Source of the DNA: Promethearchaeota archaeon
GTDB taxonomy: Archaea; Asgardarchaeota; Lokiarchaeia; Sigyniarchaeales; SOKP01
Length of the DNA: 64,000 nucleotides
Reading direction: 5' to 3'
Assembly (NCBI GenBank): GCA_019058445.1
Contig: JAHPZA010000004.1
Span: 290,084 to 354,083, forward strand
The notes under the pieces were generated by a model. That model was not told the DNA's origin, ran no database searches, and worked only from the letters and a program-made list of their open reading frames with translations. Below, in pieces: positions 26,837-43,942 of this stretch (the stretch's first letter is position 1; every line of letters starts with the position of its first letter). Made by a program: the position numbers and the translations under genes.

Positions 26837-28255
26837 TTATTTGTCCAAAAGTCCAAATTTTTTGAGTCCTTGCCTCATATCGGGTTGAAACGGTCCTGGA
26901 GTCCCCTCTATAAACGCTTCAATAATATCTTGATTATTGACTTCGTGTGACTCTCTTTTTTTCGCTTTTTCTTCCGCGAGTGATGTTATTGCCATTCTTG
27001 CCATTGATTGAAATTGAGGGGGAGATAATTTGATTAATTCATTGAAGATTTTTTCAGTTTCAGGATCCCATATCAGCTCTGATTTTCTCTCTTTCTTGGT
27101 TTTCGTTGAATCTACTCCAAATTCACGGCTTGTCACAATATCATTTAGATAATCCTTTAAAGATTCAACATATCGGGTAGATTCTTCTTCATCAAGGAAT
27201 ACTGCCTTTTTTGCCCAATCCTCGCAATAGGTACATTCACCGCACATAGCCACACAATTTTGTTTTTTAAAGAAATCTATAAATCCGTCAAGTTTCGTAT
27301 TGTCTATAATTAGTTTAGATTTAGATTCTTTTCCTAGGGTTTCACTTATTTTTGCATTAGGATCCTTTTGTTCCAGACCTCCGAATGACATCGAAAATCC
27401 TTGAATAATATCCACAAGATTTCCATGATATTCACGGGAAGCAAATGCTTTTACTGCTCTGACAATCCATTCAGTTGACATGCGTCGCCCTGCGATTTTA
27501 AAATCATCAATTCCAATCGCTTCATAGTGGGAAAGGTCTTCAGGTCGAATCCATCGTGCTTTTATAACTTCCGTTGGATCAGAAAATTTAATAATACTAC
27601 AATTTAAAATGCATGTATCGATATAATTACGCTCGAATTGTTGATGGGTCTGAGAGGCATGTCCAAGTATATTATAATGATAATATCTAAATGGACATTG
27701 ATAAAGACACCCATCAGTTAAAAGTAACACGATTTTGCAATTAGTTGCTTCCTTGATTTTTTCTAAAGTCTGGAAATCTCGGTTTATCATTACATCAGGA
27801 GTTATCTCATCCGCGCCTAGCATTTCATATAATTTTGCCCGATTCACACTATTAATATGGGCAATAGTAGATACACGAATTTTTAGTTTAGGAAATTGTT
27901 CCTTAATAAGCTGTATTAGAAAAGGAATAGTAACAATTACATTATCAGTTCCTATATCACTAATCCATTGAATGTATTTAAGCAGTTCTTTATGATATTG
28001 CGAATTATATTCCATATTATTCATGCAAGGGGCATTCAATAAATAAGAAAATTCCATTTTATTCTCATGAACCTTTTTGATGTACTCAGCAATTTGCTCT
28101 TCTTGTATTGTTTTTAATAAGAATGAGGGACGACCTCCTCCGACAAGTGTGTGATCAGCAACCCCATACAAACTAGCAACCGGATATTTTGCCAGTTCTT
28201 CTATAAGGTTAAAATCCCAATTCGTTGCTACATGAAATTGAATTTTTTTCACCAT
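26837..28255 (-). CDS. U32 family protein (Fe-S hydroxylase-like, UbiU/UbiV/RlhA/TrhP superfamily) with C-terminal PCP_red/DUF2621-like domain
   Basis: GGGR, LNAPC, GCLYQCPF, CILNC, WIRPEDL and FKIAGR. The last ~78 aa (LIWDPETEKIF...TPGPFQ) match the shared domain. Confidence 0.85.
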   Translation of the reverse strand: MVKKIQFHVATNWDFNLIEELAKYPVASLYGVADHTLVGGGRPSFLLKTIQEEQIAEYIKKVHENKMEFSYLLNAPCMNNMEYNSQYHKELLKYIQWISDIGTDNVIVTIPFLIQLIKEQFPKLKIRVSTIAHINSVNRAKLYEMLGADEITPDVMINRDFQTLEKIKEATNCKIVLLLTDGCLYQCPFRYYHYNILGHASQTHQQFERNYIDTCILNCSIIKFSDPTEVIKARWIRPEDLSHYEAIGIDDFKIAGRRMSTEWIVRAVKAFASREYHGNLVDIIQGFSMSFGGLEQKDPNAKISETLGKESKSKLIIDNTKLDGFIDFFKKQNCVAMCGECTYCEDWAKKAVFLDEEESTRYVESLKDYLNDIVTSREFGVDSTKTKKERKSELIWDPETEKIFNELIKLSPPQFQSMARMAITSLAEEKAKKRESHEVNNQDIIEAFIEGTPGPFQPDMRQGLKKFGLLDK

Positions 28256-28288
28256 TTTATATGTTTAAAATATTTCTCAATTTTATTA

Positions 28289-28675
28289 CTACTTAACTGC
28301 TTTAGCATGGGCTTTTGCATTAAGTGGTAATAACGGAGCGCATGCCATGAGTTTAGTGACGTCCCCTTCTACAACATATGTTCCGGACATTGTTGCTTGA
28401 ATTGGATCAGACTCACCTGAATTTACTTTTTTAATTGTCTCAAAATCCGTTTTGTGGATTACCTTTGGAGCATCTGGTCCTTTATATTCACCCATTCCCC
28501 AATTCATCTTGTCATTTTCAATATATTGCCAATAATTCATCTCTGGCTTGTCAGTTATGATATATTGAAAAATTAACGGAGCTATCGGCTCTAATAACTG
28601 CGTTAAATCAGGTAACTCATTATAAGCTTTCATGAAGCGTGTTAAATACGCTTTCCATTCTTCATTTTCATCCAT
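28289..28675 (-). CDS. SCP2 sterol/lipid-carrier domain protein
   Basis: 128 aa; GESDPIQATMSGTYVVEGDVTKLM matches the SCP2 C-terminal signature. Confidence 0.85.
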   Translation of the reverse strand: MDENEEWKAYLTRFMKAYNELPDLTQLLEPIAPLIFQYIITDKPEMNYWQYIENDKMNWGMGEYKGPDAPKVIHKTDFETIKKVNSGESDPIQATMSGTYVVEGDVTKLMACAPLLPLNAKAHAKAVK

Positions 28676-28775
28676 TTTTATTCAATCTTTTTAGTTTTTT
28701 AATTTTTTCGAATTTTTTTTAAAATTTAATCAAATTTGATATTTCTTTAACCTTCAGGGATAAAATTCCTTACTA

Positions 28776-29948
28776 TCATTTATAAGAATCAATTCCCGCT
28801 TTAGCACCCATAAACAAGAAATCTACCATAGTCCCATTATAGTCATTTTCGATTTTATAATAGAGACCGTTGGGCGTGAAAGTAATGCCATAGATAAACT
28901 TTCTCATTTCACTCTGGAATGGGGATTCTTCAACATATTTTTTTATGAGGGGATGAAAGTGCGTCGGAACTTGTTTTGAATCATGACATGCTATACCAAA
29001 ACATAGGCGCTCAATTCTAGACGAATCCCAGCTAAAAGTATAATTAAGATGGGCAGCTTGACAACATCTTTCCATTATTTCTTCAGATGCAATCTCAAAA
29101 CCTATGTCTTTCACGAGCGCTTTGCATTTCTCAGGTGTCGCTGTGGAAGGATCTCTTAGCATAAAATAGATATTTGTTGTCTCATGTAAAAAATCAAAGG
29201 CAAAAACAGCAAAAACAAATAATTTATGTTTTTTGAAGTATTCTTCATAGGTTTTCATGCTTTGTGGAATATATTTCATTGAAAAAATGGAATCAATAGG
29301 ACCGGGGACGATAAACGGCCAGATCTTTGATAATCCATTCCTTGCATCCAAATCAACACCATAACCCAAAATATCAAACGTATCAAATACTTCTAATATC
29401 ATTTTGTGAATAGCGTGCCCATTTTTTTCGATTAACCCTTCATTTATAGCAACTGTATATGGATCTGGATCATGGACTATCATCATTTCCACATATCTGA
29501 CAGAGACATCCCTATTTTCAACTGGCTTAGTAGTAGTTCTAATTGATACTGGAGAACCTGAGAAAAATTTCTTATAGGCATTGAGTCCCTTCCAAATAGC
29601 ATCTTCATTACATTTTACTCCTGTAAGTACCCCAAGCTTTAAAATATCTTTTACCATTTGATTTAGATCATTATTACATTTAAAATCAGATTTGATTTTG
29701 GGTAAATATAGTTCATATTCGACACCTAAAGCTAATAAATCTTCTATCATAGTTGGTTGAAAAGCGGGGGGTGTCACTTCAAACAAAGCGATTATAAGAT
29801 CTATTTCTGCGACATTTTTCCCATTTCTTTCTATACATTTCTTTTCTGCGTTCTCAAAGAGCATAGGTTTTATGACAGGTCTTACCATTTCTGGAATTTT
29901 TAAAACTAAGTTATTATATAATTTTTTGACTTCTGGTTGCCATTCCAT
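28776..29948 (-). CDS. soluble ABBA-family aromatic prenyltransferase (NphB/CloQ-like) with N-terminal PCP_red/DUF2621-like domain
   Basis: YGVDLDARNGLSKIWPF, FAFDFLHETTNIYF, YTFSWDSSRIERLCF and YYKIENDY match PT-barrel strands of NphB/CloQ-type enzymes. Confidence 0.8.
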   Translation of the reverse strand: MEWQPEVKKLYNNLVLKIPEMVRPVIKPMLFENAEKKCIERNGKNVAEIDLIIALFEVTPPAFQPTMIEDLLALGVEYELYLPKIKSDFKCNNDLNQMVKDILKLGVLTGVKCNEDAIWKGLNAYKKFFSGSPVSIRTTTKPVENRDVSVRYVEMMIVHDPDPYTVAINEGLIEKNGHAIHKMILEVFDTFDILGYGVDLDARNGLSKIWPFIVPGPIDSIFSMKYIPQSMKTYEEYFKKHKLFVFAVFAFDFLHETTNIYFMLRDPSTATPEKCKALVKDIGFEIASEEIMERCCQAAHLNYTFSWDSSRIERLCFGIACHDSKQVPTHFHPLIKKYVEESPFQSEMRKFIYGITFTPNGLYYKIENDYNGTMVDFLFMGAKAGIDSYK

Positions 29949-30011
29949 TTATTTTATTACCTCATTTTTTATTTTTAATTGACTTTTTTTGATTTCTATT
30001 TTTACTTGTAT

Positions 30012-31436
30012 TTATATTAGATATTTTGCGAATTGAATTTGGCTCAATTCAGCAAATCCTTCTGGATTATTAAAGCCAAGTCCTGGCATCATCCATCTAG
30101 GATTATTTATACCATACTCCCTAACCACTTGAAAGAGGTCAACCTCTTTGATTTTTGGAGAGATATAGAATTTTGGTTTTAGTAAATTTTCATTCTTTTG
30201 AATTACACCCTCTTGTTCAGCAATGAGTTGAAGAGGTGTATGAGGGTAGATTCTCATACCGATAAATACTATTACATCACCATCTCCTTGCCATAGGTTC
30301 CCTCTATAACTCTTTATTGTTTCTAACTGATTAAATGAAGCTCGAACCGTATCAAGAGTTTCTCCAGGTCCCCCAACTATAATATGAATTAATTGTTCAA
30401 TATCTAGCTCAAAGCATTTTTGTGAAGTGAGAATAGCTTCATCGGGGGAACGACTTTTTTTCATATTTCTTAACATCTCCTCTGAAAATGATTCTATTCC
30501 CGTTGCAAAATGTGAGGCACCGCTTTTTTTCATAAGGGGTATTAAATCAATAAACATTTTATTCGGCACATAATTCGCTCCCCAATTAATATCAACTTTA
30601 TGTTTTATAATTTCTTGACACGTTTCCTTTAAATGATTATAGTCTAAATTAAAAACACTATCTACAATAAACACATTTTGTATTTCATAATTGTTTACCA
30701 TTATATCAAGCTCCTCAGCAATTTTTTTTGGAGATCTATAACGAACAGTAGAGCCTTCAATGTACTTATAACTGCAGTAAATGCAATTCATTGGACATCC
30801 TCGTTTTGTTTGAATATTTCCCCAAGTAGGACCTGTTTTTTTCAATGGATCTATGAGATACGCTTCATTTTCAATCAACTCTCGTGTAGGAAATGGGAGC
30901 TTATCTAAATTTTCTATTCGCCATGGAGGTCTCTGATAATAGTGCCCCTTTTTATCGATAAAGCATATACCCATCTGAATTTTCTTTAAATCATTATGAA
31001 CTTTAAGCCGCTTCAGAATCTCGGCAAATACATATTCACCCTCACCTACTACTCCGATATCGTGTTTTAAATCTCTAAGGATTTCTTCTGAAAAAATTGA
31101 AAACCCAGCACCACCTAGAACTACTGGAATTTCTGGTTCTGCGATTTGCTTAATATATTGAATAATTCTTTTAACGGGTAGATAAAAAAATAAGTTTCCA
31201 GGGTAAGTTGTAGAATCAACATTCCGAATGGAAATACCGATTAAGTGAGGATTGAACTTCTCAATAGCGTTAGAAATGTCTCGTTTAACATCGTTACTGA
31301 GGGTTAAATCAAGTATTTTTACATCATGTCCTTGACTAATAAGATAAGCTGCAAGATATGCTTCTCCTAAAGGTGGGACCATTACATGGACTATTTCCCG
31401 ACTGCCAGAAAAGATTAATACACGCAAATTATCCAT
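30012..31436 (-). CDS. cobalamin-binding radical SAM protein (class B methyltransferase-like)
   Basis: PPLGEAYLAAYL, GISIRNVD, GEGE, RGCPMNCIYC and GPGET. ATG at 31436 is preferred over TTG at 31442. Confidence 0.92.
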   Translation of the reverse strand: MDNLRVLIFSGSREIVHVMVPPLGEAYLAAYLISQGHDVKILDLTLSNDVKRDISNAIEKFNPHLIGISIRNVDSTTYPGNLFFYLPVKRIIQYIKQIAEPEIPVVLGGAGFSIFSEEILRDLKHDIGVVGEGEYVFAEILKRLKVHNDLKKIQMGICFIDKKGHYYQRPPWRIENLDKLPFPTRELIENEAYLIDPLKKTGPTWGNIQTKRGCPMNCIYCSYKYIEGSTVRYRSPKKIAEELDIMVNNYEIQNVFIVDSVFNLDYNHLKETCQEIIKHKVDINWGANYVPNKMFIDLIPLMKKSGASHFATGIESFSEEMLRNMKKSRSPDEAILTSQKCFELDIEQLIHIIVGGPGETLDTVRASFNQLETIKSYRGNLWQGDGDVIVFIGMRIYPHTPLQLIAEQEGVIQKNENLLKPKFYISPKIKEVDLFQVVREYGINNPRWMMPGLGFNNPEGFAELSQIQFAKYLI

Positions 31437-31454
31437 CCTCAATTTTATTGTAAA

Positions 31455-32873
31455 TTATAACTTCGTTCTCTTTTCAATTAATTCGATTTCTTCTTCATGA
31501 GAAGCATTTATTTCGTTTCCATGATTATTTTCATGCCAACAGAAAGGGAATGACCCAAAAAAGTCACCTGTTATGTATTCTGCGGTCACACGACATCCTC
31601 CACCGCAATATTTAAGATGATGACATTTTGCGCATTTGCCTTTAATTTTTTTCCTGTCGCGTATATTCTTATAGAGCTGAGAATTTAAGATATCTTCAAA
31701 GTTATCCTTTAATCCATGACCAAGGGTTAATTTGGTAGGATATCCCGTTGGATATAATGTCCCTTCTACACCAACACCCATCATTGTTCTGCAAGCTAAG
31801 CACCCTACTCCCCATTCAAGTGCTGTGACTTCCTTATCATTCCTAAAACATTCCATAAAAGGCATCATCTCATAAATTTCATAAGCCGGTAAGGTTCCTG
31901 CTTCCCCTTCCCTAATCTTCTCAATCGCATGTTTATATTTATAATCATATAATCTCTTGTATTCCTCTTTATTCAGACCAATTTCATCCCAATGGATCGC
32001 AGCGCGATTTACTTTTACAATAGGCCTAAAAAAGGGTTGAGCCCCCCATTGTAATGATAAATCGTTGAGCTCCTGCAATTCATCAATATTTTGTTTCATA
32101 ACAGTTATAGATGCACACGCAAATAATCCGTATTTCAAACAATTTTTAATTGCTCTTTCAGCATATTCTAAGGAATTAGGAAAACCACGTATTTCATCAT
32201 TTTTCTTTGGATCAGTACTGTCAAAACTGACAAAGACATGACTTAATTCATTTTCTTTACACATTTTTGCAAATTCCTCATCAAATGCTACTCCATTGGT
32301 AATAATTGCATGATAGTATCCGTTTTCTTTACAATGTTTCATTAATTCACCAATGTCTTCTCTTAGAGTAGGTTCCCCGCCAAACCAAATGAAACAAGCA
32401 TGTCTACCTTGAGCTCTAAGTCCAGATTCTATATTATCCATTATTTGGCACCACTGTTCTTTTGTCAACTCCTCTCGAGGGGGCAGACCATCTGCAGCGG
32501 CACAATGCACGCATTTCATATTGCATCTATCTGTGACATACATCGCGAAATGAATATTTCCAGGATGAAAGGCTTTTTCCATTTTATCCCAGGATAATTT
32601 AAGTCGATCTCTTATTTCATTAATTTCAATATATCGCTCTACATCTATATCTAAGGATTTTAAATCTTCAACCATCATGGATTTAAAAGCTTCGGGGATA
32701 ATATCAAAAATTCCGGTAATTACATCTTCTTCATTCACATAAGATTCATTTCGTTCGATGCATCTTTTTTGAGCAGCTTCTATAATCATAGGTTTAACGG
32801 AAGGACGAAATCCTTCTGGCATTTTTTCTACGATTCTGGCAAATAATTTTTCTGTTTCTGGTTCCCATTCCAT
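31455..32873 (-). CDS. radical SAM/SPASM protein with N-terminal PCP_red/DUF2621-like domain
   Basis: CNMKCVHC, FGGEP and CAKCHHLKYCGGGCR. The real start is likely ATG 32873 (MEWEPE), matching paralogues and avoiding overlap. Confidence 0.92.
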   Translation of the reverse strand: MEWEPETEKLFARIVEKMPEGFRPSVKPMIIEAAQKRCIERNESYVNEEDVITGIFDIIPEAFKSMMVEDLKSLDIDVERYIEINEIRDRLKLSWDKMEKAFHPGNIHFAMYVTDRCNMKCVHCAAADGLPPREELTKEQWCQIMDNIESGLRAQGRHACFIWFGGEPTLREDIGELMKHCKENGYYHAIITNGVAFDEEFAKMCKENELSHVFVSFDSTDPKKNDEIRGFPNSLEYAERAIKNCLKYGLFACASITVMKQNIDELQELNDLSLQWGAQPFFRPIVKVNRAAIHWDEIGLNKEEYKRLYDYKYKHAIEKIREGEAGTLPAYEIYEMMPFMECFRNDKEVTALEWGVGCLACRTMMGVGVEGTLYPTGYPTKLTLGHGLKDNFEDILNSQLYKNIRDRKKIKGKCAKCHHLKYCGGGCRVTAEYITGDFFGSFPFCWHENNHGNEINASHEEEIELIEKRTKL

Positions 32874-32886
32874 TAAGACCCACCCA

Positions 32887-34254
32887 TTATTTACAATTTT
32901 CATGTTCATGATCATTTTTATGCCAACAAAACGGGAGAGCCGCTAAAAAATCACCAGTTACGTTTTCAGCATGGACCCTACAGCCCCCACCACATAAATC
33001 AAGATGATGACAAGTTGAACATTTCCCTTTTATTTTTCTATCTCTAATTTTTTTAAACATTTCGGTTTCCATAATCTCATCCCAACTTTGCTCAAGAATG
33101 TTGCCTAAGGTTAATTCAGAGGGATAATCGCAAGGGAATACATCTCCATTGGTATCAATCCCAGAAATTGAGCGGCAGGCTTGGCATCCTGTGCCCCATT
33201 CGATCGCAGTCCTTTCCTCATCATTTATAGGACACTCCATGAATGGCACCATATCCCATGTATAGAATTTATTAAGAGCCGATGCTTCTCCTTTTCTGAT
33301 GGCTTCTATAGCGTTTTTATATTTGAAATCATAGAATTGTCGATATTCATCCATACTTAAGCCGATTTCGTCCCAATTTAAATCCGCCGAACGTTGTTTG
33401 ATCAGGGGTCTGTAAAAGGGAATTACGCCCTTAGAATCAAAATATTTTTTTAAGTCTTCTAATTCATCGAAGTTCTCTTTTTGTGCAGTTACATTAGCAA
33501 TGGTAAAAAGCCCATATTTTGAAGCTAAATTTAGGGCTTTTTCCGCCGCCTCGTATGCTTTTGGATGCCCTCTAATTTTTGCAGCCCGTTTAGGATCTGT
33601 ACTATCATAACTAATAAAAACATGGCTCATCTTAACATCTGCGCATAATTTCGCCAGTTCTTCATTAAATAAAATTCCATTAGTTGCAAGTGCTTGATAA
33701 TAGCCCTTTTCACCGCAATATTTTATTAAATCTTTAAGATCTTTACGAATAGTAGGTTCTCCTCCAAACCATATATAACAACCTCGACGACCGCGTTTTC
33801 GTAAGCTGAGTTCAAGATCCTCAATAATTTCAATCCATGTTTCCGTGGGAAATTCTGGACGTTTCTCCATTACTGCGGCAGCACAATGAAGACAATTTTG
33901 GTTGCATCGATCTGTGAGATATAAAGTGAAATGATATACTCCTGGTAAAAATGCACCACTAATTTCTTCCCAAGTACGAGTATAATTTTTCCTAATTTCT
34001 GACAATTTGATATATCGTTTTGTATCAATTCCTAATTTTTTCAAATCTTGGACAACTGTTGGTTGAAACGCCTCGGGAGTTATTTCAAATAGCGCGGATA
34101 ATAGATCATCCTTGCTTACATAACCAGAATTCCTAAGTCGTGCTGTTTTCTCAGCTGCTTCACGCAACATAGGTTTTACAGCCGCACGAAATGCTTCAGG
34201 TACTTGTTCTGTGATGGTTCCATACATTTCTTCAATATCTTCTTTCCATTCCAT
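32887..34254 (-). CDS. radical SAM/SPASM protein with N-terminal PCP_red/DUF2621-like domain
   Basis: CNQNCLHC, FGGEP, CQAC...GDVFPC...CSTCHHLDLCGGGCR. ATG 34254 follows the SD GGTGA. Confidence 0.92.
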   Translation of the reverse strand: MEWKEDIEEMYGTITEQVPEAFRAAVKPMLREAAEKTARLRNSGYVSKDDLLSALFEITPEAFQPTVVQDLKKLGIDTKRYIKLSEIRKNYTRTWEEISGAFLPGVYHFTLYLTDRCNQNCLHCAAAVMEKRPEFPTETWIEIIEDLELSLRKRGRRGCYIWFGGEPTIRKDLKDLIKYCGEKGYYQALATNGILFNEELAKLCADVKMSHVFISYDSTDPKRAAKIRGHPKAYEAAEKALNLASKYGLFTIANVTAQKENFDELEDLKKYFDSKGVIPFYRPLIKQRSADLNWDEIGLSMDEYRQFYDFKYKNAIEAIRKGEASALNKFYTWDMVPFMECPINDEERTAIEWGTGCQACRSISGIDTNGDVFPCDYPSELTLGNILEQSWDEIMETEMFKKIRDRKIKGKCSTCHHLDLCGGGCRVHAENVTGDFLAALPFCWHKNDHEHENCK

Positions 34255-35310
34255 ACTTTTCACCTTAATTTTTCCTTTTTTTTGAACTTAATTATTTATT
34301 GAATTAAATAATAATACTATTTTATATTCAGAAGAATTACATTTTTTTTTCATTTTTGTATCCTCCCGTGTGATAGACTCATGAATATTAGGAGAAGTAT
34401 TAGTATTGGGAGGAAGACAACGTTTTTTTAAACCATAAATAAGGATTATTATAAAAACCAAACACAAATAAAATTTTTGTTGAAAATTAGAGATGTTGTG
34501 AAGTTTTAAATAGAATTTGTTATGCCGTGTAATGCGGATATAACTTTTGTTATTTCCATAATAGTTAGAGAGATTATTAATTCTTTTACTTAAAATCCAT
34601 TTTTTTCCTATTTTAATATTTAGAGATCTATTATTGCCTGTTGACAAATCCTCTAATTCAATTGCACTCTCAGGTTCGTTGGACTGACTTCGTAATTCTG
34701 CATTGTTTCTAAGATAGAGATCTAAAAAAGTAAACGTTCCTAAGTCATTCTTTAAGCACACATTTTTAACATAGTGATAAACACTAGAATCAATATGGAT
34801 AATTATGCTAATAATAATGAAGATATCAATTAACTGACCAATAGTTAGATGAATGAATTGATATTTTTCAGGTAAAAACCAGAAAAGGTTAATGTTAGGT
34901 ATAACTGGAAAAAAAAAAGAATTCCCTGATGTAAAATATTTCTCTAAAAAAGAAATTAAAACAGGAATATCCTTTAAAATCATGTAAATTATAGAAACTA
35001 AGAAAAAGGATGTAATAAAGATTAAAATCAAAATAACTTTTAATTTTTCAAGTTTATGATAATTTTTCATGTCTTTAACGCTCTACTTTCAACGAAATTT
35101 TAGATGAGTTTTACTTTTAAAGAATAATGTTTCAATATCTTGGTTAAATAAATTTGCAATTAATTAACTATTTATTATTATTGCTTTTTGAATTTTTTCA
35201 TCTATAATTGTCATTTTTGTAAGAAATAGTCCAATATAATTAAATTATGGTTAAAAAAGTGTAAGAATAAAAAAAATTAAAGGCTATATTATGTATAAAA
35301 TTTAATTATT
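34143..35310 (-). repeat. copy A of a ~1.17-kb diverged inverted duplication
   Basis: The reverse complement aligns by eye with 39780-40949, covering the upstream region, the 260-aa ORF and the first ~37 codons of the radical SAM gene. Confidence 0.9.
34288..35070 (-). CDS. uncharacterised 260-aa membrane protein, first gene of the operon (copy 1)
   Basis: Three hydrophobic segments; a full-length paralogue of identical length lies at 40021-40803. Confidence 0.6.
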   Translation of the reverse strand: MKNYHKLEKLKVILILIFITSFFLVSIIYMILKDIPVLISFLEKYFTSGNSFFFPVIPNINLFWFLPEKYQFIHLTIGQLIDIFIIISIIIHIDSSVYHYVKNVCLKNDLGTFTFLDLYLRNNAELRSQSNEPESAIELEDLSTGNNRSLNIKIGKKWILSKRINNLSNYYGNNKSYIRITRHNKFYLKLHNISNFQQKFYLCLVFIIILIYGLKKRCLPPNTNTSPNIHESITREDTKMKKKCNSSEYKIVLLFNSINN

Positions 35311-35343: not shown

Positions 35344-36765
35344 TTGGAGGAGTCATGTTTGCGAATATTACTTATTAATCCAAATTATCCTAATGTTTTC
35401 ACATATGGGCCACAAGCAAGCATTCTCTTTCCCCCTTTAGGATTAGAATATATAGCAGCGTATATCGAAGATATTGCTGAAGTTCGTTTGCTCGACAATC
35501 GATTAAAAACAGGAAACTTAAGAATCATTGAAAAAACGCTGGAACAATTCCAACCAGATTATACAGGGATTAGTTGTAATTATTCATCTCAGATTAATAT
35601 TGCTTTGGGGATTGCAAATATTGCTAAAAAATGGGGTTCCCGAACTATTCTTGGAGGATGGCATCCTACACTAGTACCTGATGAAACTCTCGAACATTCC
35701 TCAGTGGATATAGTTATTAGAGGGGAAGGCGAATTGACTTTTCGGGAACTCATCCAAAAAAATAGCCCTATTGGAATCCAAGGTTTATCCTACAAGCAAA
35801 ATGGAAAGCAAATGCACAATCCTGATCGTGATTTAATGGATTTAAAACAGATTCGATGCCCTGACCGAGGCATTCGATTGTGTAGCGCAAATAAAACATA
35901 TAATTTCTTCGGATTTCCTGTAGAATGCATTGAGACTACCCGAGGCTGCCCTTACTCTTGTACATTTTGCTGCATCCACCATTTCTATAGGAATACATAT
36001 CGAAAACGCAAAGTTGAACACGTTATAACGGAATTAAATTCTAACGAGATACGAAATCGTGCTAGTCATATCTTCATTGTGGATGATAATTTTGTGGTAG
36101 ATCAAAAATTTGTCGCAGAGTTATGCGACGGTATAATCCAAACTGGCATCAATAAGTATTTTATGGCACAGGCACGCGTTGATATGATTGTTCATCATCC
36201 CGAAATTTTCAAGAAGATGGCTGATGCAGGATTTATTTATCTTTTTTTAGGTCTGGAAAGTTTTTCAGATCGCATCTTAAAGAAATTAAATAAACGTATT
36301 AAGTTTCAAGAAATTAAGTCAGCTTTGAGGATAGCTCATGATTATGGTTATGTTGTCCAAGGAAATATAATATTGGGTGCCGATCTCGAAGATACAAACA
36401 GAGATCTCCAATCTGTAATTGATATTACTAAAATTTTAGATATAGATTTCCCTACCTTCTCTATGCTGACACCTCTTCCTGGAACGAGCTTGATGGAAGA
36501 AGTAATGGAAAGAAACCTCTTACTCACTAATGAGTGGCATAACTTCAACTGGTCAGTTCCCGTTATTAAATATCCTAATCTATCAGCAAAAGAAATGAGT
36601 GATTATTTAGCCATGGCCTATGAAAAAACCTTTACCTTTAAAAGAGCTCAATTAGGATTAAAAAGGTTGGTTTTTGATCGAGGCGTAAAATTTCACATGT
36701 CTCGAATGAAACTCAATGATCTTATAAAAATAAGCGCTCACATGCTTAAAAATCTATGCAGATAA
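35344..36765 (+). CDS. cobalamin-binding radical SAM protein
   Basis: PPLGLEYIAAY, GGWHPT, RGEGE, RGCPYSCTFC, VDDNF and LGLES. Confidence 0.93.
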   Translation: MEESCLRILLINPNYPNVFTYGPQASILFPPLGLEYIAAYIEDIAEVRLLDNRLKTGNLRIIEKTLEQFQPDYTGISCNYSSQINIALGIANIAKKWGSRTILGGWHPTLVPDETLEHSSVDIVIRGEGELTFRELIQKNSPIGIQGLSYKQNGKQMHNPDRDLMDLKQIRCPDRGIRLCSANKTYNFFGFPVECIETTRGCPYSCTFCCIHHFYRNTYRKRKVEHVITELNSNEIRNRASHIFIVDDNFVVDQKFVAELCDGIIQTGINKYFMAQARVDMIVHHPEIFKKMADAGFIYLFLGLESFSDRILKKLNKRIKFQEIKSALRIAHDYGYVVQGNIILGADLEDTNRDLQSVIDITKILDIDFPTFSMLTPLPGTSLMEEVMERNLLLTNEWHNFNWSVPVIKYPNLSAKEMSDYLAMAYEKTFTFKRAQLGLKRLVFDRGVKFHMSRMKLNDLIKISAHMLKNLCR

Positions 36766-36841: not shown

Positions 36842-38329
36842 TTACTTTTCTTTCATTTTGGAATCTTTTGAGCCTGTAGTTAAAAACATGGGAGCAGTAG
36901 TTAAAAACAATAACATATTTGCATTTTTGATAGAAACTTTAGAAAAATTCTCAGTGTCATAATTTATTACATTATAGAAAAAGGATATTTTTGCTCTTTT
37001 AAAAATTTCGACGATCTCGAGAAAAGACTTATAGTTTAGTTTAATACCGAATGTTTCAGGAGATTCGTGTGCTGGAGAACCAGGAAAAATATGATAGGGT
37101 TCACTCATAATGGTTATTGGTTTGAAATTTGATGGGCCATATTTTAAAAGACATTTAGCTCCAAAATTAAAATCTTTAAGAACATCTATCCGTTTTTGAA
37201 ATGGAAATCCTATAGTTAGCCAAATTCGTAGGGGGATTTGATATAAATTTGCATGTTTTATTAAAGTATTAATTTGACTTTTAGGAAAGCGAAATGTTGG
37301 GTCACACACTTTAGCTATTTTTTGGTGAACACGCGAGGATAATGTGCGAGGAGAAATGCTGATTGAGGAATATTTACGAGTAAATGTTTTGTGAAATATT
37401 TTCCACATCTCTTTAGGAAACGGTAACCTCCATATCTCTAAATCTCCGCTAATCTCAAATTTTTCTTTTTGAATTAAACCAAATAATCTTTTCCAATATT
37501 TTAAACTCGCTGGATATGTACCATGCCCGAAAAATAGGCTTTCGATTTTATACTTGCTAAGAAGATAACTAATATCTTCTACTACATTATTTGGATTTCT
37601 AAGTAAGACCTTATTTCGTCCAGAATTCCTCTGCTGAGCTCTTTGACCTCCTCCACAATACGGGCAATTATAAGGACATCCTCTTCCAATAGGGAGATTG
37701 TAAGAGATTCCCATAATTTTTCTGCTGTATTCGACATATTTTTTCGCATTCAGAAGTGATGATAAGTTTGAAAAATTTAATGTATCCAGAGACTTCGCAA
37801 TATATGAAAGAGAATTTACTTTAATGTGTTTAGATGAATCCCGATAAGTTAAATTGGGAACAGAATCTAAAGGTAGGTTTTGATTAACCTTTTTTATAAA
37901 TTTTAGAAGAGGAACTTCACCTTCTCCTCTAATAATTCCATCAATTACGCTATAATATTTTAAGATTTGATCATGATAGTATGAAGCACTAAAACCCCCA
38001 AGAATCACTTTTACATGAGGTTTTATCTTTTTTACAATTTTAGCAATTTCGATGGCGCCATGTGCATTATGAATCCAATGTAAATCGATTGCACATGCAT
38101 TAAAATCAATATTTTTAAGATAATCAGACAAATTCCAATTACGATTTAAATATTTTTCAAAGGGATAATTTACTATTTTAACCCCAAAGCCTTCCCTCTC
38201 AAGGAAATCGGAAATAGCAAAAATACCCATTGGAATAAAAATATATTCCCCACGTTTAAATCTGGCATGTTTATTATGGGGATTTAACACTCTAGGAGGG
38301 TGTATGAACAGGATATCGAAGTTTTTCAA
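36842..38329 (-). CDS. cobalamin-binding radical SAM protein (paralogue of 42437)
   Basis: DILFIHPP, AIDLHW, RGEGE and RGCPYNCPYCGG. Confidence 0.9.
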   Translation of the reverse strand: MKNFDILFIHPPRVLNPHNKHARFKRGEYIFIPMGIFAISDFLEREGFGVKIVNYPFEKYLNRNWNLSDYLKNIDFNACAIDLHWIHNAHGAIEIAKIVKKIKPHVKVILGGFSASYYHDQILKYYSVIDGIIRGEGEVPLLKFIKKVNQNLPLDSVPNLTYRDSSKHIKVNSLSYIAKSLDTLNFSNLSSLLNAKKYVEYSRKIMGISYNLPIGRGCPYNCPYCGGGQRAQQRNSGRNKVLLRNPNNVVEDISYLLSKYKIESLFFGHGTYPASLKYWKRLFGLIQKEKFEISGDLEIWRLPFPKEMWKIFHKTFTRKYSSISISPRTLSSRVHQKIAKVCDPTFRFPKSQINTLIKHANLYQIPLRIWLTIGFPFQKRIDVLKDFNFGAKCLLKYGPSNFKPITIMSEPYHIFPGSPAHESPETFGIKLNYKSFLEIVEIFKRAKISFFYNVINYDTENFSKVSIKNANMLLFLTTAPMFLTTGSKDSKMKEK

Positions 38330-38542: not shown

Positions 38543-39484
38543 ATGGACTATATGATAGAATTAATCTTTAGAATTGTATTTCCGTTAGTGTTAGTAGGAT
38601 TTATTGTAATTATCTTCATTAGTAGTCTTTCCAATAAAAATCCACATCATACGTTTATGGATTTTGATACTTTCCTAAAAGATTGGATCAAAGATCACGG
38701 AGTAGCTCATAAGGAGGAGGAATATTTTGCACAAATGAAAAAAGATCCTTCTGGAGCACTTTATATGCCTTTGACCTACAAAGGTGCAAAAATATTCATA
38801 AAATGGGGTTTTACTCCTAACAAAGTATCTTACTTAAATCTGATTTTCTCATTTTTCATATTTTATGGTGTGATAATGGCAGGTGAAGGCCATGCCCTTG
38901 ATTTACGTTCTCAACAACCATATTATGGCATTTGGTTTTTTGCTCTTGGATTTTTGGTACTTTTTACGGGAGTTATCGATGGAATTGACGGTGCAATTGC
39001 CAGGTTATTGGATATAAAGTCAAAAAGTGGCGCTTGGCTAGATAATGTGATTGATAGGATGAGTGATATATTATTATTAGTCTGTTTAATTCCAGGCAAT
39101 TTCCTAGTATTTTTAAATTACGGACTTGATTTTACATGGATGATTTGGACTAATATTTTCTTAATATTTCTTTATGAATATATGAGAGCAAGACATGAGG
39201 GTTTAGGGTTGCTTGAAACAAAACCCTTTGCTGGTGAAAGAGTGACGCGTATATTAATAATTGGCACATGTTTTTTGATTTATGGTATTTCGAGTTTCAT
39301 GATTGTAGTAACTGATTGGATTTACCCCTCTGCTACAGTAATCTGGCTTAATTCACATTATGCTGCAACAATTTGGTGTATGCTAATTTTCCAAGTTATA
39401 TTACTAGGTATAATGGCTATATCATCCCTACAATTAGCAAGATATAGTTTTAAACAACTAAAGAAAATGGATACTACTAACTAA
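38543..39484 (+). CDS. CDP-alcohol phosphatidyltransferase family protein
   Basis: TPN and DGIDGAIAR...SKSGAWLDNVIDRMSD signature; multiple TM helices. Confidence 0.93.
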   Translation: MDYMIELIFRIVFPLVLVGFIVIIFISSLSNKNPHHTFMDFDTFLKDWIKDHGVAHKEEEYFAQMKKDPSGALYMPLTYKGAKIFIKWGFTPNKVSYLNLIFSFFIFYGVIMAGEGHALDLRSQQPYYGIWFFALGFLVLFTGVIDGIDGAIARLLDIKSKSGAWLDNVIDRMSDILLLVCLIPGNFLVFLNYGLDFTWMIWTNIFLIFLYEYMRARHEGLGLLETKPFAGERVTRILIIGTCFLIYGISSFMIVVTDWIYPSATVIWLNSHYAATIWCMLIFQVILLGIMAISSLQLARYSFKQLKKMDTTN

Positions 39485-39520: not shown

Positions 39521-39748
39521 TTGGAATGGGAAAAAGAGACAGAAGAACTATTTGAAGGAATAATAAATAAAATGCCTGAGGGATTTCGTCCTTCTGTAAA
39601 ACCAATAATAATTGAGGCGGCTAAAAGTAGATGTATCGAGCAAAATGGTGGTGCTCATATTAATGATACTGATGTTATTACAGGGATTTTTGATATTATT
39701 CCTGAAGCATTTAAGAGGTTAAAAAAAAATATTTTTAATTACCAATAA
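39521..39748 (+). CDS. stand-alone PCP_red/DUF2621-like domain (free copy or remnant of the N-terminus of the 31455 radical SAM)
   Basis: KMPEGFRPSVKP and DVITGIFDIIPEAFK are identical to the 31455 protein, followed by an unrelated tail; TTG start. Confidence 0.6.
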   Translation: MEWEKETEELFEGIINKMPEGFRPSVKPIIIEAAKSRCIEQNGGAHINDTDVITGIFDIIPEAFKRLKKNIFNYQ

Positions 39749-39779: not shown

Positions 39780-40949
39780 AATAATTAAATTTTATACTTA
39801 TTATAGCTTTTAGTTTCTATTATTCTTACACTTTTTTTAACAAAAATTATACTATTATTATCTCTCTTACAAAAATGACAATTAAAAGCATGAAAAAATT
39901 CAAAAAGTAATAATACTAAATAGTTAATTAATCACTAAATTTATATAACCTAAATATTAAGATATTATTCTCGAAGATAAAACTCATTTAAAACTTCATT
40001 AACATTGGAGTGTTAAAGATATGAAAAATCATAATAAACTTGAAAAATTACAAGTTATTTTGATTTTAGTCTTTATTACTTCTTTTTTCCTTGTTTCTGT
40101 CATTTACATGTTTTTAACAGATATACCCATTTTGATTTCTTTATTCGATAGATATTTTACGTCAGGAAATTCTTTTTTTTTCCCATTTATACCTAATATT
40201 AGCCTTTTATGGTTTTTGCCAGAAAAATATCAAATAATAAATCTTACTTTTGGGCAATTGGTTGATATCTTCATTATTATTAATATAATTATCCATATTG
40301 ATTCTAGCGTTTATCATTATGTTAAAAATGTGTGCCTAAATAATGATACACGTTCATTCACTTTTTTAGATCTCTATATTAGAAATAATGCTGAATTACA
40401 TAGAAAGTCCCAAAAAACCGGTAGTTCAATCGAATCAGAGGATTGGTCAATGGGCGATATTGAATATATATATATCAATACAAAAAAAAATGGATTTTTG
40501 CGTAAAAGAATCAGTAATCTCTCTAACAATCATGGAAAAAAGGAAAGTTGCGTCAACATCAAGTGGCGCAACGAATTCTGTTTAAAAACGCACAATCTTT
40601 CTAATTTTCAACAAAAATTTTACTATTACTCTGCTTTTATAATATCCTCTTTTTATGGTTTAAAATATCATTGTCTTCCTCCCAATACTAATACTTCTCC
40701 TAATCTTTATGAATCTAAAACACAGGAGGATACTGAAATGAAAAAAAAATGTAATTTTTCTGAATATAAAAAAGTATTTTTAATCAATTCAATTAATAAT
40801 TAAGTTCAAAAAAAATGGAAAAATTAAGGTGAAAAGTATGGAATGGAAAAAAAATATTGAAGAAATGTATGGAACCAACACAGAACAAGTTCCTGAAGCA
40901 TTTCGTGCGGCTGTAAAACCCATGTTGCGTGAAGCAGCTGATAAAACAG
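39780..40949 (+). repeat. copy B of the ~1.17-kb inverted duplication
   Basis: Homologous to the reverse complement of 34143-35310. Confidence 0.9.
40021..40803 (+). CDS. uncharacterised 260-aa membrane protein (copy 2)
   Basis: Paralogue of 34288-35070, sharing YFTSGNSFFFP, IHIDSSVYHYVKNVCL and CLPPNTNTSPN. Confidence 0.6.
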   Translation: MKNHNKLEKLQVILILVFITSFFLVSVIYMFLTDIPILISLFDRYFTSGNSFFFPFIPNISLLWFLPEKYQIINLTFGQLVDIFIIINIIIHIDSSVYHYVKNVCLNNDTRSFTFLDLYIRNNAELHRKSQKTGSSIESEDWSMGDIEYIYINTKKNGFLRKRISNLSNNHGKKESCVNIKWRNEFCLKTHNLSNFQQKFYYYSAFIISSFYGLKYHCLPPNTNTSPNLYESKTQEDTEMKKKCNFSEYKKVFLINSINN

Positions 40950-41012: not shown

Positions 41013-42326
41013 GTGGTATTTTTCATTATTTTACACTTAAATTTTCCACCCTCTTGGTCGTCCGGAACAAAAACGGCAATTGACACTTTCTTTGCTGATC
41101 CTTTAACTTATTGGTGGTTTATATTTCCGTTTATTGGACTAATGATTCTATTGGGATTTATTATTTACTATGGAATATATTTTCTAGCATCGTTTGGTGG
41201 TGGTTATCGAGTTAAAATTCCATATTATGCAAATATAAGTATCTTAATTGCTTCTAAAAATGAAAAAATATTATTAGAGAGAACCTTAAATTCCATTATA
41301 AAATCAAATTATCCTATGGAAAAAATACAATTAGTCATAATAACAAGCGGATCAACAGATGATACTACTGAATATTGTCAAAGATTCGCAAGAGAGCATA
41401 AATCATTAAGCATAGAGGTTTTATCAGAGAATCTTCCAAAAAAGGGAAAACCTCCAGCTCTAAATTATGGTTTAAAATATGTTGAGAATGATATTATTAT
41501 CCTTTATGACTCAGGCTGCATTTTAGAACCGGATACATTAAAGAATTTAATAGCACCATTTCGAGATGAAAAAATTAATGCGGTTATTGGCCCCGTATTA
41601 GTCAAAAATTGGAAAGATAACAAGTTAACCAGAGGTATTTATTTTGATTATGCCTATATGTCCGGTGGTGGACAACTCTTCGAAACTAAAAATAGATTAG
41701 GAGCATCAGCTTATTCATTTGGAAGAAATTTTGCAGTTTCTACAAGATATATTCGTAAATATGGAGGTTTTAATGAAGATTCAATGACCGAGGATCTTTA
41801 TCTCTCAGTGCTTTTAAATTTAGATGGAGTTAAGATTCATTTTTCACCTAAAGCAAGAGTTTATGAATATGTGCCAAATAAATGGGAAATTTTGGTTAAA
41901 CAGCGCACACGATGGATTGCAGGATATACTTATGATATGCCGCAATTAATGGCAATGGAAGGCAAAGACAAGAATGGGAAATCAATAATTATTTCAAGAA
42001 ATATGACTATGACTGTAATTGGAAATATGGATACATGGATTCCTATTATAATCGGATTTGCAATATTTTATTTTATAATCGGTGAATATTATTTACTAAG
42101 TTGGACAATATTATGTTTATTCTTTCAATTTGGCTTTTTATTTAATGCTTTGCGTAAATATGCTGATAGTCATTATAGTCTATTATTCTTTTTTCCAATA
42201 AGTGCTTATATTCATCTATTTATGTTTACATGTCAGTTTAAACTTCCTAAAGAATTAAGCTGGGAAAAAACCCCCATGATTTTAGAAAGACAAGAAGCAG
42301 AAATTAAAGCATTGTCCAGTCAATAG
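41013..42326 (+). CDS. GT2 family membrane glycosyltransferase (QxxRW type)
   Basis: KGKPPALN, YDSG, TEDL and QRTRW, with flanking TM helices. The frame is open upstream to ATT 40977. Confidence 0.9.
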   Translation: MVFFIILHLNFPPSWSSGTKTAIDTFFADPLTYWWFIFPFIGLMILLGFIIYYGIYFLASFGGGYRVKIPYYANISILIASKNEKILLERTLNSIIKSNYPMEKIQLVIITSGSTDDTTEYCQRFAREHKSLSIEVLSENLPKKGKPPALNYGLKYVENDIIILYDSGCILEPDTLKNLIAPFRDEKINAVIGPVLVKNWKDNKLTRGIYFDYAYMSGGGQLFETKNRLGASAYSFGRNFAVSTRYIRKYGGFNEDSMTEDLYLSVLLNLDGVKIHFSPKARVYEYVPNKWEILVKQRTRWIAGYTYDMPQLMAMEGKDKNGKSIIISRNMTMTVIGNMDTWIPIIIGFAIFYFIIGEYYLLSWTILCLFFQFGFLFNALRKYADSHYSLLFFFPISAYIHLFMFTCQFKLPKELSWEKTPMILERQEAEIKALSSQ

Positions 42327-42436: not shown

Positions 42437-43942
42437 TTGAAATCTATTGATATTTTGTTTTTGCATCCTCCAAGAATTTTTGCAAAAGATTATCTTGAAG
42501 TGAGAAGTGCCTTTGCTATGTTGCCTGTAGGGCTTGTAGCTCTGGCAGATTATTTAGAACAAAACGGCTATTCTACCCGTATTTTGAACATTCCGATGGA
42601 AATTCATTTTAACAAAAATTTTCGTCTCTCAGAGTATTTAAAATCAGTTGACGTTAAAATTTGTGCTATTGATTTACATTGGATTTTGAATGCGTTTGGT
42701 GCCATTCAAACCGCAGAAATCGTTAAGAAATTTAATTCCAACATAAAGACGATTGTTGGTGGATTTAGTGCTACTCACTTCCATGAAGATGTGATTAATT
42801 ATCCTTCAATAGATGTTGTTGTACGAGGAGAGGGGGAGTATCCACTTCTACAACTGGTAAATCATTTTCTAAAAGGAAGTCCTCAAATGAAAGAGATCCC
42901 AAATATCACTTTTAAACAGAATGGGAAAATATATCAAAACCCAGTGAAATATATCGCAGAAAGTCTTGACTTCCTGAATTTTAGTCGTATGGAATTGATG
43001 GAAAATTGGAAAAATTATACAAAAATGATTCCATCCATCAGTATTATGATGGGACGTTCTTGCCCGTTTAAATGTGGATATTGTGGAGGTGGAAACGATG
43101 CGTATTATAAGCTGCATAAAAGAAGAAATGTGATTTTGAGAGATCCAAAACTTATTGTTGAGGATATTGTTCATTTGAAAAATCTCTATCCTAAATTAAA
43201 ACTCATCGATTTAACTCATGGATATTATCCCGGGATACATCAATTTTGGATGGATCTATTACATTTTATTAAAAACGAAAAGGTTGATCTAGGAGCAATA
43301 TTCGAAGCTTGGGATTTACCAGTAAAAGATTCCTTTTTAAAAGAAGCAGTTAAAACTTTCAATGCTAAAATGTCATTCTTAAATTTTTCCGTGCATTCAT
43401 TTTCAGAACGAGTACGGAAATCCTTTGTAAAGCTTGGAGACCCTAAGTTCAGTTTTTTAAATACTGAAGTGTACAATTTAATTACAAAATGTGGTAAGTA
43501 TTACCTGCCTTTAGTTCTTTGGTTAACTGTAGGCAACCCATATGAGACAGTCCAAGATGTATTGATAAATCTCAAACACCTTTTAAAAATTACCAAAGAT
43601 TATATTCTTAGGAATAAGCAAGCGATTTTATTTATCAATACCGCAATTTTAATAAGTCCAAGCAGTCCAGCATTTTTAAACGAAAAGAAATTTGGAATAG
43701 ATATTAAAGTCAAGAATTTCCGGGATTTTTACAGTCTATTTAGAGATCTTCGCTATTCCATGGGTTTTTTAGATGATCCTGTTAATTATGATACTATCTA
43801 TTTATCTAGAAGAAAAATTAAAATTTTAAATAATGTTTTTCAAGGAATTAGTATCCTTCCCATAATCCTTTCCCTCATTAACCTTAAAACTCATATAAAT
43901 ACACAAATAAGAAAATTAAAAATTCAAAATAGAAAACAATGA
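42437..43942 (+). CDS. cobalamin-binding radical SAM protein (paralogue of 36842)
   Basis: DILFLHPP, AIDLHW, RGEGE and RSCPFKCGYCGG. Confidence 0.9.
   Translation: MKSIDILFLHPPRIFAKDYLEVRSAFAMLPVGLVALADYLEQNGYSTRILNIPMEIHFNKNFRLSEYLKSVDVKICAIDLHWILNAFGAIQTAEIVKKFNSNIKTIVGGFSATHFHEDVINYPSIDVVVRGEGEYPLLQLVNHFLKGSPQMKEIPNITFKQNGKIYQNPVKYIAESLDFLNFSRMELMENWKNYTKMIPSISIMMGRSCPFKCGYCGGGNDAYYKLHKRRNVILRDPKLIVEDIVHLKNLYPKLKLIDLTHGYYPGIHQFWMDLLHFIKNEKVDLGAIFEAWDLPVKDSFLKEAVKTFNAKMSFLNFSVHSFSERVRKSFVKLGDPKFSFLNTEVYNLITKCGKYYLPLVLWLTVGNPYETVQDVLINLKHLLKITKDYILRNKQAILFINTAILISPSSPAFLNEKKFGIDIKVKNFRDFYSLFRDLRYSMGFLDDPVNYDTIYLSRRKIKILNNVFQGISILPIILSLINLKTHINTQIRKLKIQNRKQ

Follow-up and report, generated by a model that had tools for sequence, protein, structure and literature searches.

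Where a small domain recurs on unrelated enzymes of one gene cluster, it usually marks the physical organisation of a pathway, as do docking domains, carrier proteins and the recognition elements (RRE) of pathways to ribosomally synthesised and post-translationally modified peptides (RiPPs). We know of no such domain described for the O2-free modification of prenylated aromatics. No tag domain common to the Ubi enzymes, which assemble around UbiJ or UbiT, is known to us. The O2-independent UbiT-UbiU-UbiV system combines an SCP2 carrier with U32 iron-sulfur (Fe-S) enzymes (PMC6747719). We have analysed a stretch of 64,000 nucleotides (the window) from an Asgard archaeon (Promethearchaeota, contig JAHPZA010000004.1; assembly of 4.6 Mb, ~30% GC), whose minus strand carries a six-gene operon (26837-34263). 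Its genes are transcribed in the order SPASM-2 (P0006), SPASM-1 (P0005), B12-binding radical S-adenosylmethionine (SAM) enzyme (P0004), aromatic prenyltransferase (PTase, P0003), SCP2 protein (P0002) and U32 protein (P0001), and four of the products share a helical domain of ~80 amino acids (aa), here called DOM. The operon resembles the Ubi metabolon (UbiJ/UbiK) and UbiT-UbiU-UbiV in combining an SCP2 carrier with U32 Fe-S enzymes that would act on a prenylated aromatic, with the enzymes set around a lipid carrier. It differs from them in lacking UbiK, in having a soluble PTase of the ABBA type and in its additional radical SAM enzymes.

The enzyme set of this cluster and of a metagenomic cluster described below (soluble aromatic PTase, AhbD-like radical SAM enzymes, U32 Fe-S enzyme, SCP2 and methylases) points to an O2-independent synthesis of a prenylated aromatic lipid. 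DOM is probably a shared binding module for such a pathway to a greasy aromatic compound, and the chances that it serves as a pathway-specific adaptor, which gathers the enzymes or brings each of them to a common component, appear about even.

The similarity among the four DOM copies is far above chance. Pairwise BLASTP gave E values of 8e-30 (PTase/SPASM-1), 5e-28 (PTase/SPASM-2) and 2e-31 (SPASM-1/SPASM-2), and the U32 copy matched the other three with E values from 4e-14 to about 1e-12. In the four-copy alignment, nine columns are invariant and the other full copies are 32-43% identical to the PTase DOM. The catalytic parts of the hosts belong to unrelated Pfam families (PTase_Orf2, Radical_SAM with SPASM, and Peptidase_U32). 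Alignment, BLASTP and family assignment thus bear out the sequence-only reading of this DNA, according to which one module is fused to four enzymes that belong to three unrelated families. When the whole genome was searched with a profile, exactly six DOM copies were detected, every one inside the window, and none in the SCP2 protein or the B12-radical SAM enzyme of the operon. Besides the four full copies, there is a 75-aa open reading frame (ORF) derived from the 5' end of SPASM-1 (70% identical to the SPASM-1 DOM in amino acids, 76% in nucleotides) and the start of a SPASM-2-like gene (Table 1). An inverted duplication of 1.18 kb (34143-35310 vs 39780-40949, nucleotide identity 83.5%) carries in each arm a 260-aa membrane ORF (68% aa identity between the arms) and a SPASM gene start; the second arm finishes with the 40-residue DOM stub, beyond which come a GT2 gene and a B12-radical SAM gene.

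All four full copies match DUF2621 (PF11084) at model positions 52-139. The gathering score of 27.7 bits was passed by the SPASM-1 and U32 copies scanned alone (Table 1), while the copies of SPASM-2 (22.1 bits) and PTase (17.2 bits) stayed below it at the same model positions, being 32-48% identical to the passing copies. The full length of the model (139 positions) was not covered, its N-terminal third having no counterpart in any copy. DOM also differs from DUF2621, a small stand-alone protein, in being fused to enzymes. The best match to PCP_red (PF08369) in the window reached 14.7 bits (E 0.03) against a gathering score of 32.5, and relatives of DOM scored 28 and 21 bits (E 2e-6 and 3e-4), also below the Pfam cut-off. 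PCP_red is the C-terminal domain of the BchB/ChlB subunit of dark-operative protochlorophyllide oxidoreductase (DPOR); DOM has neither a nitrogenase-like host nor a tetrapyrrole context.

Conservation was read from an alignment of 68 diverse copies, in which W3 and P60 are invariant and P19 and D50 nearly so. These residues look structural, since no conserved Cys/His or catalytic constellation was found in the 68 copies. The AlphaFold2 model based on the same alignment (predicted local distance difference test, pLDDT, 92.9) is compact, with five helices and a short beta-bridge that pairs residues 2-3 with 45-46. Foldseek found no significant match to this model in the PDB; the best local superpositions, ~3.3 Å over ~60 residues, were those with the nuclear magnetic resonance (NMR) structures 2kru (BchB PCP_red) and 2l09 (asr4154, a relative of PCP_red that stands alone). 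For 2kru, Foldseek gave a root mean square deviation (rmsd) of 3.3 Å over 61 columns (TM score 0.56 by target, E 0.49), and VIA-align gave Z 5.2 with 2.8 Å over 60 residues, values that are compatible with the PCP_red fold yet under the noise mark for helical models; for both structures, the rmsd ranged from 2.8 to 3.4 Å over 57-61 residues. The top VIA-align matches were AAA+ lid domains (BchI 1g8p, MCM, ORC1 and Rpt3 2dzn; Z 6.8-7.9, rmsd 1.6-2.9 Å over 57-71 residues), followed at Z 5-6 by 2l09, 2kru and the Methanopyrus kandleri histone. Since the Z values lie under the noise mark, the matches to AAA+ lids and PCP_red were taken to indicate a fold class, a helix-strand-helix bundle, and not as functional evidence.

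The lids of the Rpt proteins are docking sites for assembly chaperones, and 2dzn shows Nas6p bound to the Rpt3 lid. DOM shares with AAA+ lids the helix-strand-helix core, a likeness of fold only; no AAA family was found by Pfam scans of the four DOM proteins, and the P-loop ATPase core is absent. As to histones, the best PDB sequence match was 1f1e (E 0.066; Z 5.2), and the TM score to H2B was ~0.45 at an rmsd of ~8 Å; the histone fold is extended, has three helices and requires a partner chain, and the model of DOM is a compact five-helix monomer. As modelled, DOM is an independently folding, non-catalytic helical domain of the DUF2621/PCP_red superfamily with an AAA+-lid-like fold. A resemblance to these two families had been proposed in the sequence-only reading; the DUF2621 matches, the PCP_red E value of 2e-6 in a relative and the superpositions on 2kru and 2l09 support it. 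The literature search returned no mention of the DUF2621 or PCP_red Pfam domains and nothing combining Asgard archaea, an aromatic prenyltransferase and radical SAM enzymes.

Among 1.84 billion representative proteins, the DOM profile had 240 matches at E<=1e-3, which were classed by BLAST against the catalytic domains of the window and by Pfam scans; many relatives bear a precomputed DUF2621 annotation. The list of fusion partners comprises PTase, SPASM, U32 and SCP2 together with further unrelated families (Table 1). DOM occurs at the N-terminus, at the C-terminus, internally (U32-DOM-SCP2, PTase-DOM-SPASM and LuxC-DOM-SPASM), in tandem and free-standing, by which the proposed position-independent reuse is strongly confirmed. 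DOM is a real, ancient, mobile and non-catalytic module. Long proteins with TPR or STAND domains, in which a four-sequence profile matched 5-11 stretches of 4-16 bits each, were discarded as false positives because the scores of repeats had been summed; they mostly vanished with the 68-sequence profile. A word-based search aimed at free-standing DOMs yielded mainly fragments, and several short matches proved to be C-terminal pieces of U32-DOM genes. One relative (P0242) consists of DOM and a Cys-rich tail, in a context unrelated to prenylated aromatics.

Among 150 other sampled Asgard genomes, DOM was detected (E<=1e-5) in ten, nine of which are from the window's own family (25 sampled). Eight of the ten contain 4-10 copies, one contains two and one a single copy; in the eight, the copies are confined to the contigs of the cluster (up to four contigs, the assemblies being fragmented). 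Even among close relatives the cluster is patchy (9 of 25 genomes of the family, 5 of 12 of one genus), which points to an accessory pathway with frequent loss or transfer. A fuller operon is present in a sister genome (L009, G113): membrane protein, SPASM-2 with DOM, SPASM-1 with DOM, B12 enzyme, PTase with DOM and three U32 paralogues (L009:9892-14533), namely a DOM-less one, a U32-DOM-SCP2 protein of 683 aa and a U32-DOM protein. Of this operon, the two U32 units in the middle are missing from the window, which keeps a free SCP2 protein, 77% identical to the SCP2 end of the fusion. As the first two U32 units are lost, the pathway encoded in the window may be reduced. L011, from a genome of the same genus, has kept just the B12 enzyme, a U32-DOM protein and a DOM stub that is fused to SCP2. 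The earlier statement that DOM is absent from the SCP2 and B12 enzymes therefore holds for this genome, but not for SCP2 in sister genomes, where DOM lies between the U32 and SCP2 domains of a single protein of 668-698 aa.

A tree of 94 DOMs sorts the copies according to partner enzyme: those of PTase and SPASM proteins fall together (support 92), as do U32, SCP2-linked and free-standing copies from polyketide synthase (PKS) clusters (support 95). Since copies from different genomes are orthologous, the fusions are old and separately maintained and not the result of recent local copying. Two SCP2 proteins labelled as from the bacterium Candidatus Deferrimicrobium (P0383 and P0391) are 67-69% identical to the SCP2 protein of the window, which hints that either the SCP2 gene or the cluster has been transferred between bacteria and Asgard archaea.

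Outside Asgard, a metagenome contig with 48% GC (L017:1-11449), whose cluster is probably bacterial, encodes five DOMs on the same enzyme types: a DOM-SPASM protein, a 762-aa PTase-DOM-SPASM protein and three U32-DOM proteins, together with UbiE-like methyltransferases and a HemN-like radical SAM enzyme. The latter two kinds of enzyme replace the B12 enzyme there. Both in Asgard and in this contig, DOM marks the enzymes of a single cluster in a pathway-specific way. Free-standing DOMs occur in type II PKS clusters with B12-radical SAM, PNP_UDP_1, AMP-binding and cyclase genes, one of which also encodes an aldolase-SCP2 fusion. At one locus, the free DOM gene overlaps the end of a B12-radical SAM gene and at another it directly follows such a gene. 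The metagenome loci L012 and L014 share a conserved type II PKS (ketosynthases alpha and beta, acyl carrier protein, two cyclases and a ketoreductase) with AMP-binding, PNP_UDP_1, ApbA-like and B12-radical SAM proteins and a free-standing DOM; L012 also has the isoprenoid genes IspH, polyprenyl synthase and SQS_PSY. A cluster with 66% GC encodes HpaB, Amidohydro_2, a DOM-methyltransferase, two HemN-like enzymes and an SCP2 protein.

As an adaptor, which we take to be its most likely role, DOM would give the PTase, the two AhbD-like SPASM enzymes and the U32 Fe-S enzyme one common binding surface, joined to each host by a flexible linker. It would hold the enzymes together or bring each of them to a shared component, be it another DOM, the SCP2 carrier or another protein of the cluster, so that a hydrophobic prenylated aromatic intermediate could be handed from enzyme to enzyme without leaving the complex. 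The data show the homology, the fold class, the mobility and the confinement of all copies to this cluster; that DOM binds a protein at all, and which one, we infer. The linkers of the U32-DOM, DOM-DOM and SCP2-DOM proteins are rich in Lys and Glu. In the model of the full-length PTase (pLDDT 90.8; predicted template modelling score, pTM, 0.85), the weakest internal block is the linker at residues 81-90 (pLDDT 67), and the confidence of DOM is lower than when it is folded alone, which favours a flexible tether between DOM and the modelled PTase barrel.

The proposal that the domain docks or co-assembles the enzymes has held up in part. The restriction to one cluster in Asgard and the fusion or translational coupling of DOM to SCP2 in several independent architectures speak for it, while a number of observations weigh against it. 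A deltaproteobacterial assembly (5.9 Mb, completeness not established) encodes a single DOM, on a PTase among unrelated neighbours; no second DOM was found in it, and no SCP2 protein either by our own SCP2 profile or by PF02036. In the bacterial class of this genome, DOM was present in 12 of 121 sampled genomes and as a single copy in 11 of these 12, several of the single DOMs being on a VOC/glyoxalase protein. Two N-terminal DOMs are found on a NuoE-like thioredoxin-type [2Fe-2S] subunit in a NuoE/NuoF/ferredoxin cluster (L018:6001-6927); like the VOC proteins, this host lies outside any pathway of the kind proposed here. Because of the single-copy genomes and of the VOC and NuoE-like hosts, neither SCP2 nor a set of several tagged enzymes can be a requirement for the basic function of the family. 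The pTM of the full-length PTase model is also compatible with DOM packing on its own enzyme, all structural matches (Z 5-8) are below the stated noise mark, and the nearest solved relative, the C-terminal region of BchB, covers a substrate cavity and has no tag role (PMC4071322). A complex prediction for SCP2 and DOM, both given as alignments, returned a score of 0.00 ('no answer') and counts neither for nor against docking.

Several of these observations are in agreement with the main rival explanation, that DOM is a cap or dimerisation element which closes the hydrophobic pocket of its own host, maybe across a homodimer. Its recurrence on several enzymes would then merely reflect the same greasy substrate. 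The C-terminal helix of BchB covers the hydrophobic protochlorophyllide cavity (PMC4071322), although this helix may lie outside the PF08369 region, and DOM is kin to PCP_red in sequence and structure. Most of its partners act on or bind small molecules that are aromatic or hydrophobic (VOC, HpaB, UbiE-like methyltransferase, PNPOx-like and SCP2), and the tandem copies would fit a unit working in pairs. A cap accounts better than an adaptor for the bacterial class in which single-copy genomes are the rule and for the solitary DOM-PTase without a detected SCP2 or second DOM. It accounts worse for the occurrence of DOM at either end of the PTase and in free-standing forms, which are hard to square with a single lid geometry, and leaves unexplained the restriction of all copies in an Asgard genome to one operon. 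The charged linkers and the low model confidence of the DOM-PTase linker also speak against a cap, which would moreover need a matching docking surface on each of three unrelated folds. We regard a cap as a tentative explanation of limited probability.

That each DOM binds specifically to an SCP2 carrier which holds the prenylated intermediate, the second option of the sequence-only reading, is decidedly unlikely. SCP2-DOM fusions have arisen repeatedly and independently, and two overlapping genes at locus L015, one SCP2-like and the other for a free DOM, lie between two B12-radical SAM genes. SCP2 is present in the operon of the window and in all four Asgard clusters examined (the window and L009-L011), and in the unrelated 66%-GC cluster its gene lies two genes from that of the DOM-methyltransferase. 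However, no SCP2 was detected within ~9 kb of DOM at L008, L012 and L013 (the last at a contig end) or in the entire assembly with the solitary DOM-PTase, and the small unannotated ORFs beside DOM in L008, L012 and L014 showed no similarity to the SCP2 profile. As these U32 proteins usually end in a DOM, some of the adjacency of SCP2 and DOM may reflect no more than the known partnership of U32 and SCP2 proteins (UbiU/V with UbiT, PMC6747719).

Like the PqqD-like RRE and the MbtH-like proteins, DOM is a small non-catalytic domain found fused or free on unrelated enzymes of one cluster; its fold is unrelated to theirs, there is no sequence match and its pathway is apparently one of small molecules, not of peptides or of a nonribosomal peptide synthetase (NRPS). 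We consider it unlikely that DOM is a new class of pathway-recognition domain, the small-molecule counterpart of the RRE, docking enzymes on ligand-loaded SCP2 or on another DOM and thereby defining a soluble metabolon for a not yet described O2-independent pathway to a prenylated aromatic (quinone-like) lipid, which several anaerobic bacteria would have in common with Asgard archaea; DOM would then be a marker by which such clusters could be searched for, including type II PKS clusters with many B12-radical SAM genes. A ligand-recognition element in the RRE manner, which binds the substrate or a precursor peptide and presents it to each enzyme, is very improbable: the distribution of DOM over one cluster and the presence of SPASM and B12-radical SAM enzymes, common in RiPP pathways, would suit it, but the DOMs gave no PqqD/RRE Pfam match even at E up to 10 and are modelled as all-helical with one beta-bridge, no conserved precursor-like small ORF was found, the related clusters hold small-molecule enzymes (type II PKS, UbiE-like methyltransferase, HpaB and Amidohydro_2), and a compact 80-aa helical bundle without conserved pocket residues is an unlikely small-molecule binder. 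Docking of an electron donor was set aside, since electrons are not required by the PTase, methyltransferase or SCP2 partners, even though there are NuoE-like and Cys-rich fusions. Charge-driven binding to membranes was also set aside, as the DOM copies appear net acidic (charged residues counted by hand).

The top NCBIfam match of the B12-radical SAM enzyme P0004 is TIGR04072, under the cut-off of that model. The operon is headed by a 260-aa membrane protein without a Pfam family (34288-35070), and a membrane protein of 230-260 aa stands in this position in every Asgard cluster examined (also L009:3614-4303, L010:12201-12944 and L011:6049-6810). These proteins are poorly conserved (BLAST E 1e-11 to 1e-31 across the clusters) and are candidates for a membrane anchor or a DOM partner. 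The flanks of the operon (35344-36765, 36842-38329, 38543-39484, 41013-42326 and 42437-43942) contain three further B12-radical SAM genes, a 313-aa multi-pass membrane gene and a 437-aa gene provisionally assigned to GT2. Orthologues of the B12-radical SAM gene at 36.8 kb, of the 313-aa membrane gene and of the GT2-like gene adjoin the cluster in the sister genomes L009 and L011.

Table 1. Genes and DOM copies of the window, and DOM architectures among related proteins
Feature	Position or protein	Strand	Evidence
Radical SAM/SPASM enzyme 2, AhbD/NirJ-like, N-terminal DOM (P0006)	32887..34263	-	Pfam and NCBIfam scans
Radical SAM/SPASM enzyme 1, AhbD/NirJ-like, N-terminal DOM (P0005)	31455..32873	-	Pfam and NCBIfam scans
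B12-binding radical SAM enzyme, 476 aa, without DOM (P0004)	30012..31442	-	B12-binding and Radical_SAM Pfam
ABBA (Orf2/NphB-type) aromatic PTase, 390 aa, N-terminal DOM (P0003)	28776..29948	-	PTase_Orf2 E 9.6e-50, residues 95-378
SCP2 lipid-carrier-like protein, 128 aa, without DOM (P0002)	28289..28675	-	SCP2 23 bits vs cut-off 21.3
U32-family protein, 472 aa, C-terminal DOM (P0001)	26837..28255	-	Peptidase_U32 E 3.8e-13
DOM, SPASM-2 N-terminus, residues 1-85 of P0006	34000..34254	-	DUF2621 E 1.6e-4, PCP_red E 0.03; own-genome profile E 2.1e-43
DOM, SPASM-1 N-terminus, residues 1-85 of P0005, start MEW	32619..32873	-	DUF2621 30.1 bits; profile E 1.9e-45
DOM, PTase N-terminus, residues 1-85 of P0003	29694..29948	-	DUF2621 E 5e-3; profile E 1.9e-43
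DOM, U32 C-terminus, residues 391-472 of P0001, after Lys/Glu-rich linker	26840..27085	-	DUF2621 28.2 bits; profile E 5.5e-35
75-aa ORF, shortened DOM derived from SPASM-1 5' end (remnant or free-standing form)	39521..39748	+	profile E 1.7e-22
SPASM-2-like gene start, first ~40 DOM residues	40838..40981	+	profile E 3.8e-11; 85% aa identity to SPASM-2 start
DOM-PTase	many
PTase-DOM (C-terminal)	P0131, P0136
DOM-SPASM	many
U32-DOM	many
U32-DOM-DOM (tandem)	P0007
SCP2-DOM	P0168, P0225
SCP2-DOM-PTase	P0123
U32-DOM-SCP2	P0230, P0260
U32-DOM-SCP2x3-DOM	P0157
LuxC-DOM-SPASM	P0171
HpaB-DOM	P0246
DOM-methyltransferase (UbiE-like)	P0250
DOM-PNPOx-like	P0247
VOC-DOM	P0266
PNP_UDP_1-DOM	P0155
DOMx2-NuoE-like	P0189
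Free-standing DOM, 80-100 aa	P0152, P0286

Should DOM prove to be no more than a lid or dimerisation element, the present results would usefully annotate a domain of unknown function and do nothing beyond that. If DOM is an adaptor, it would provide a handle for isolating a whole enzyme complex from an uncultured Asgard lineage, related clusters could be found by a single profile search, and a function would be suggested for DUF2621 and for the free-standing PCP_red-like proteins.

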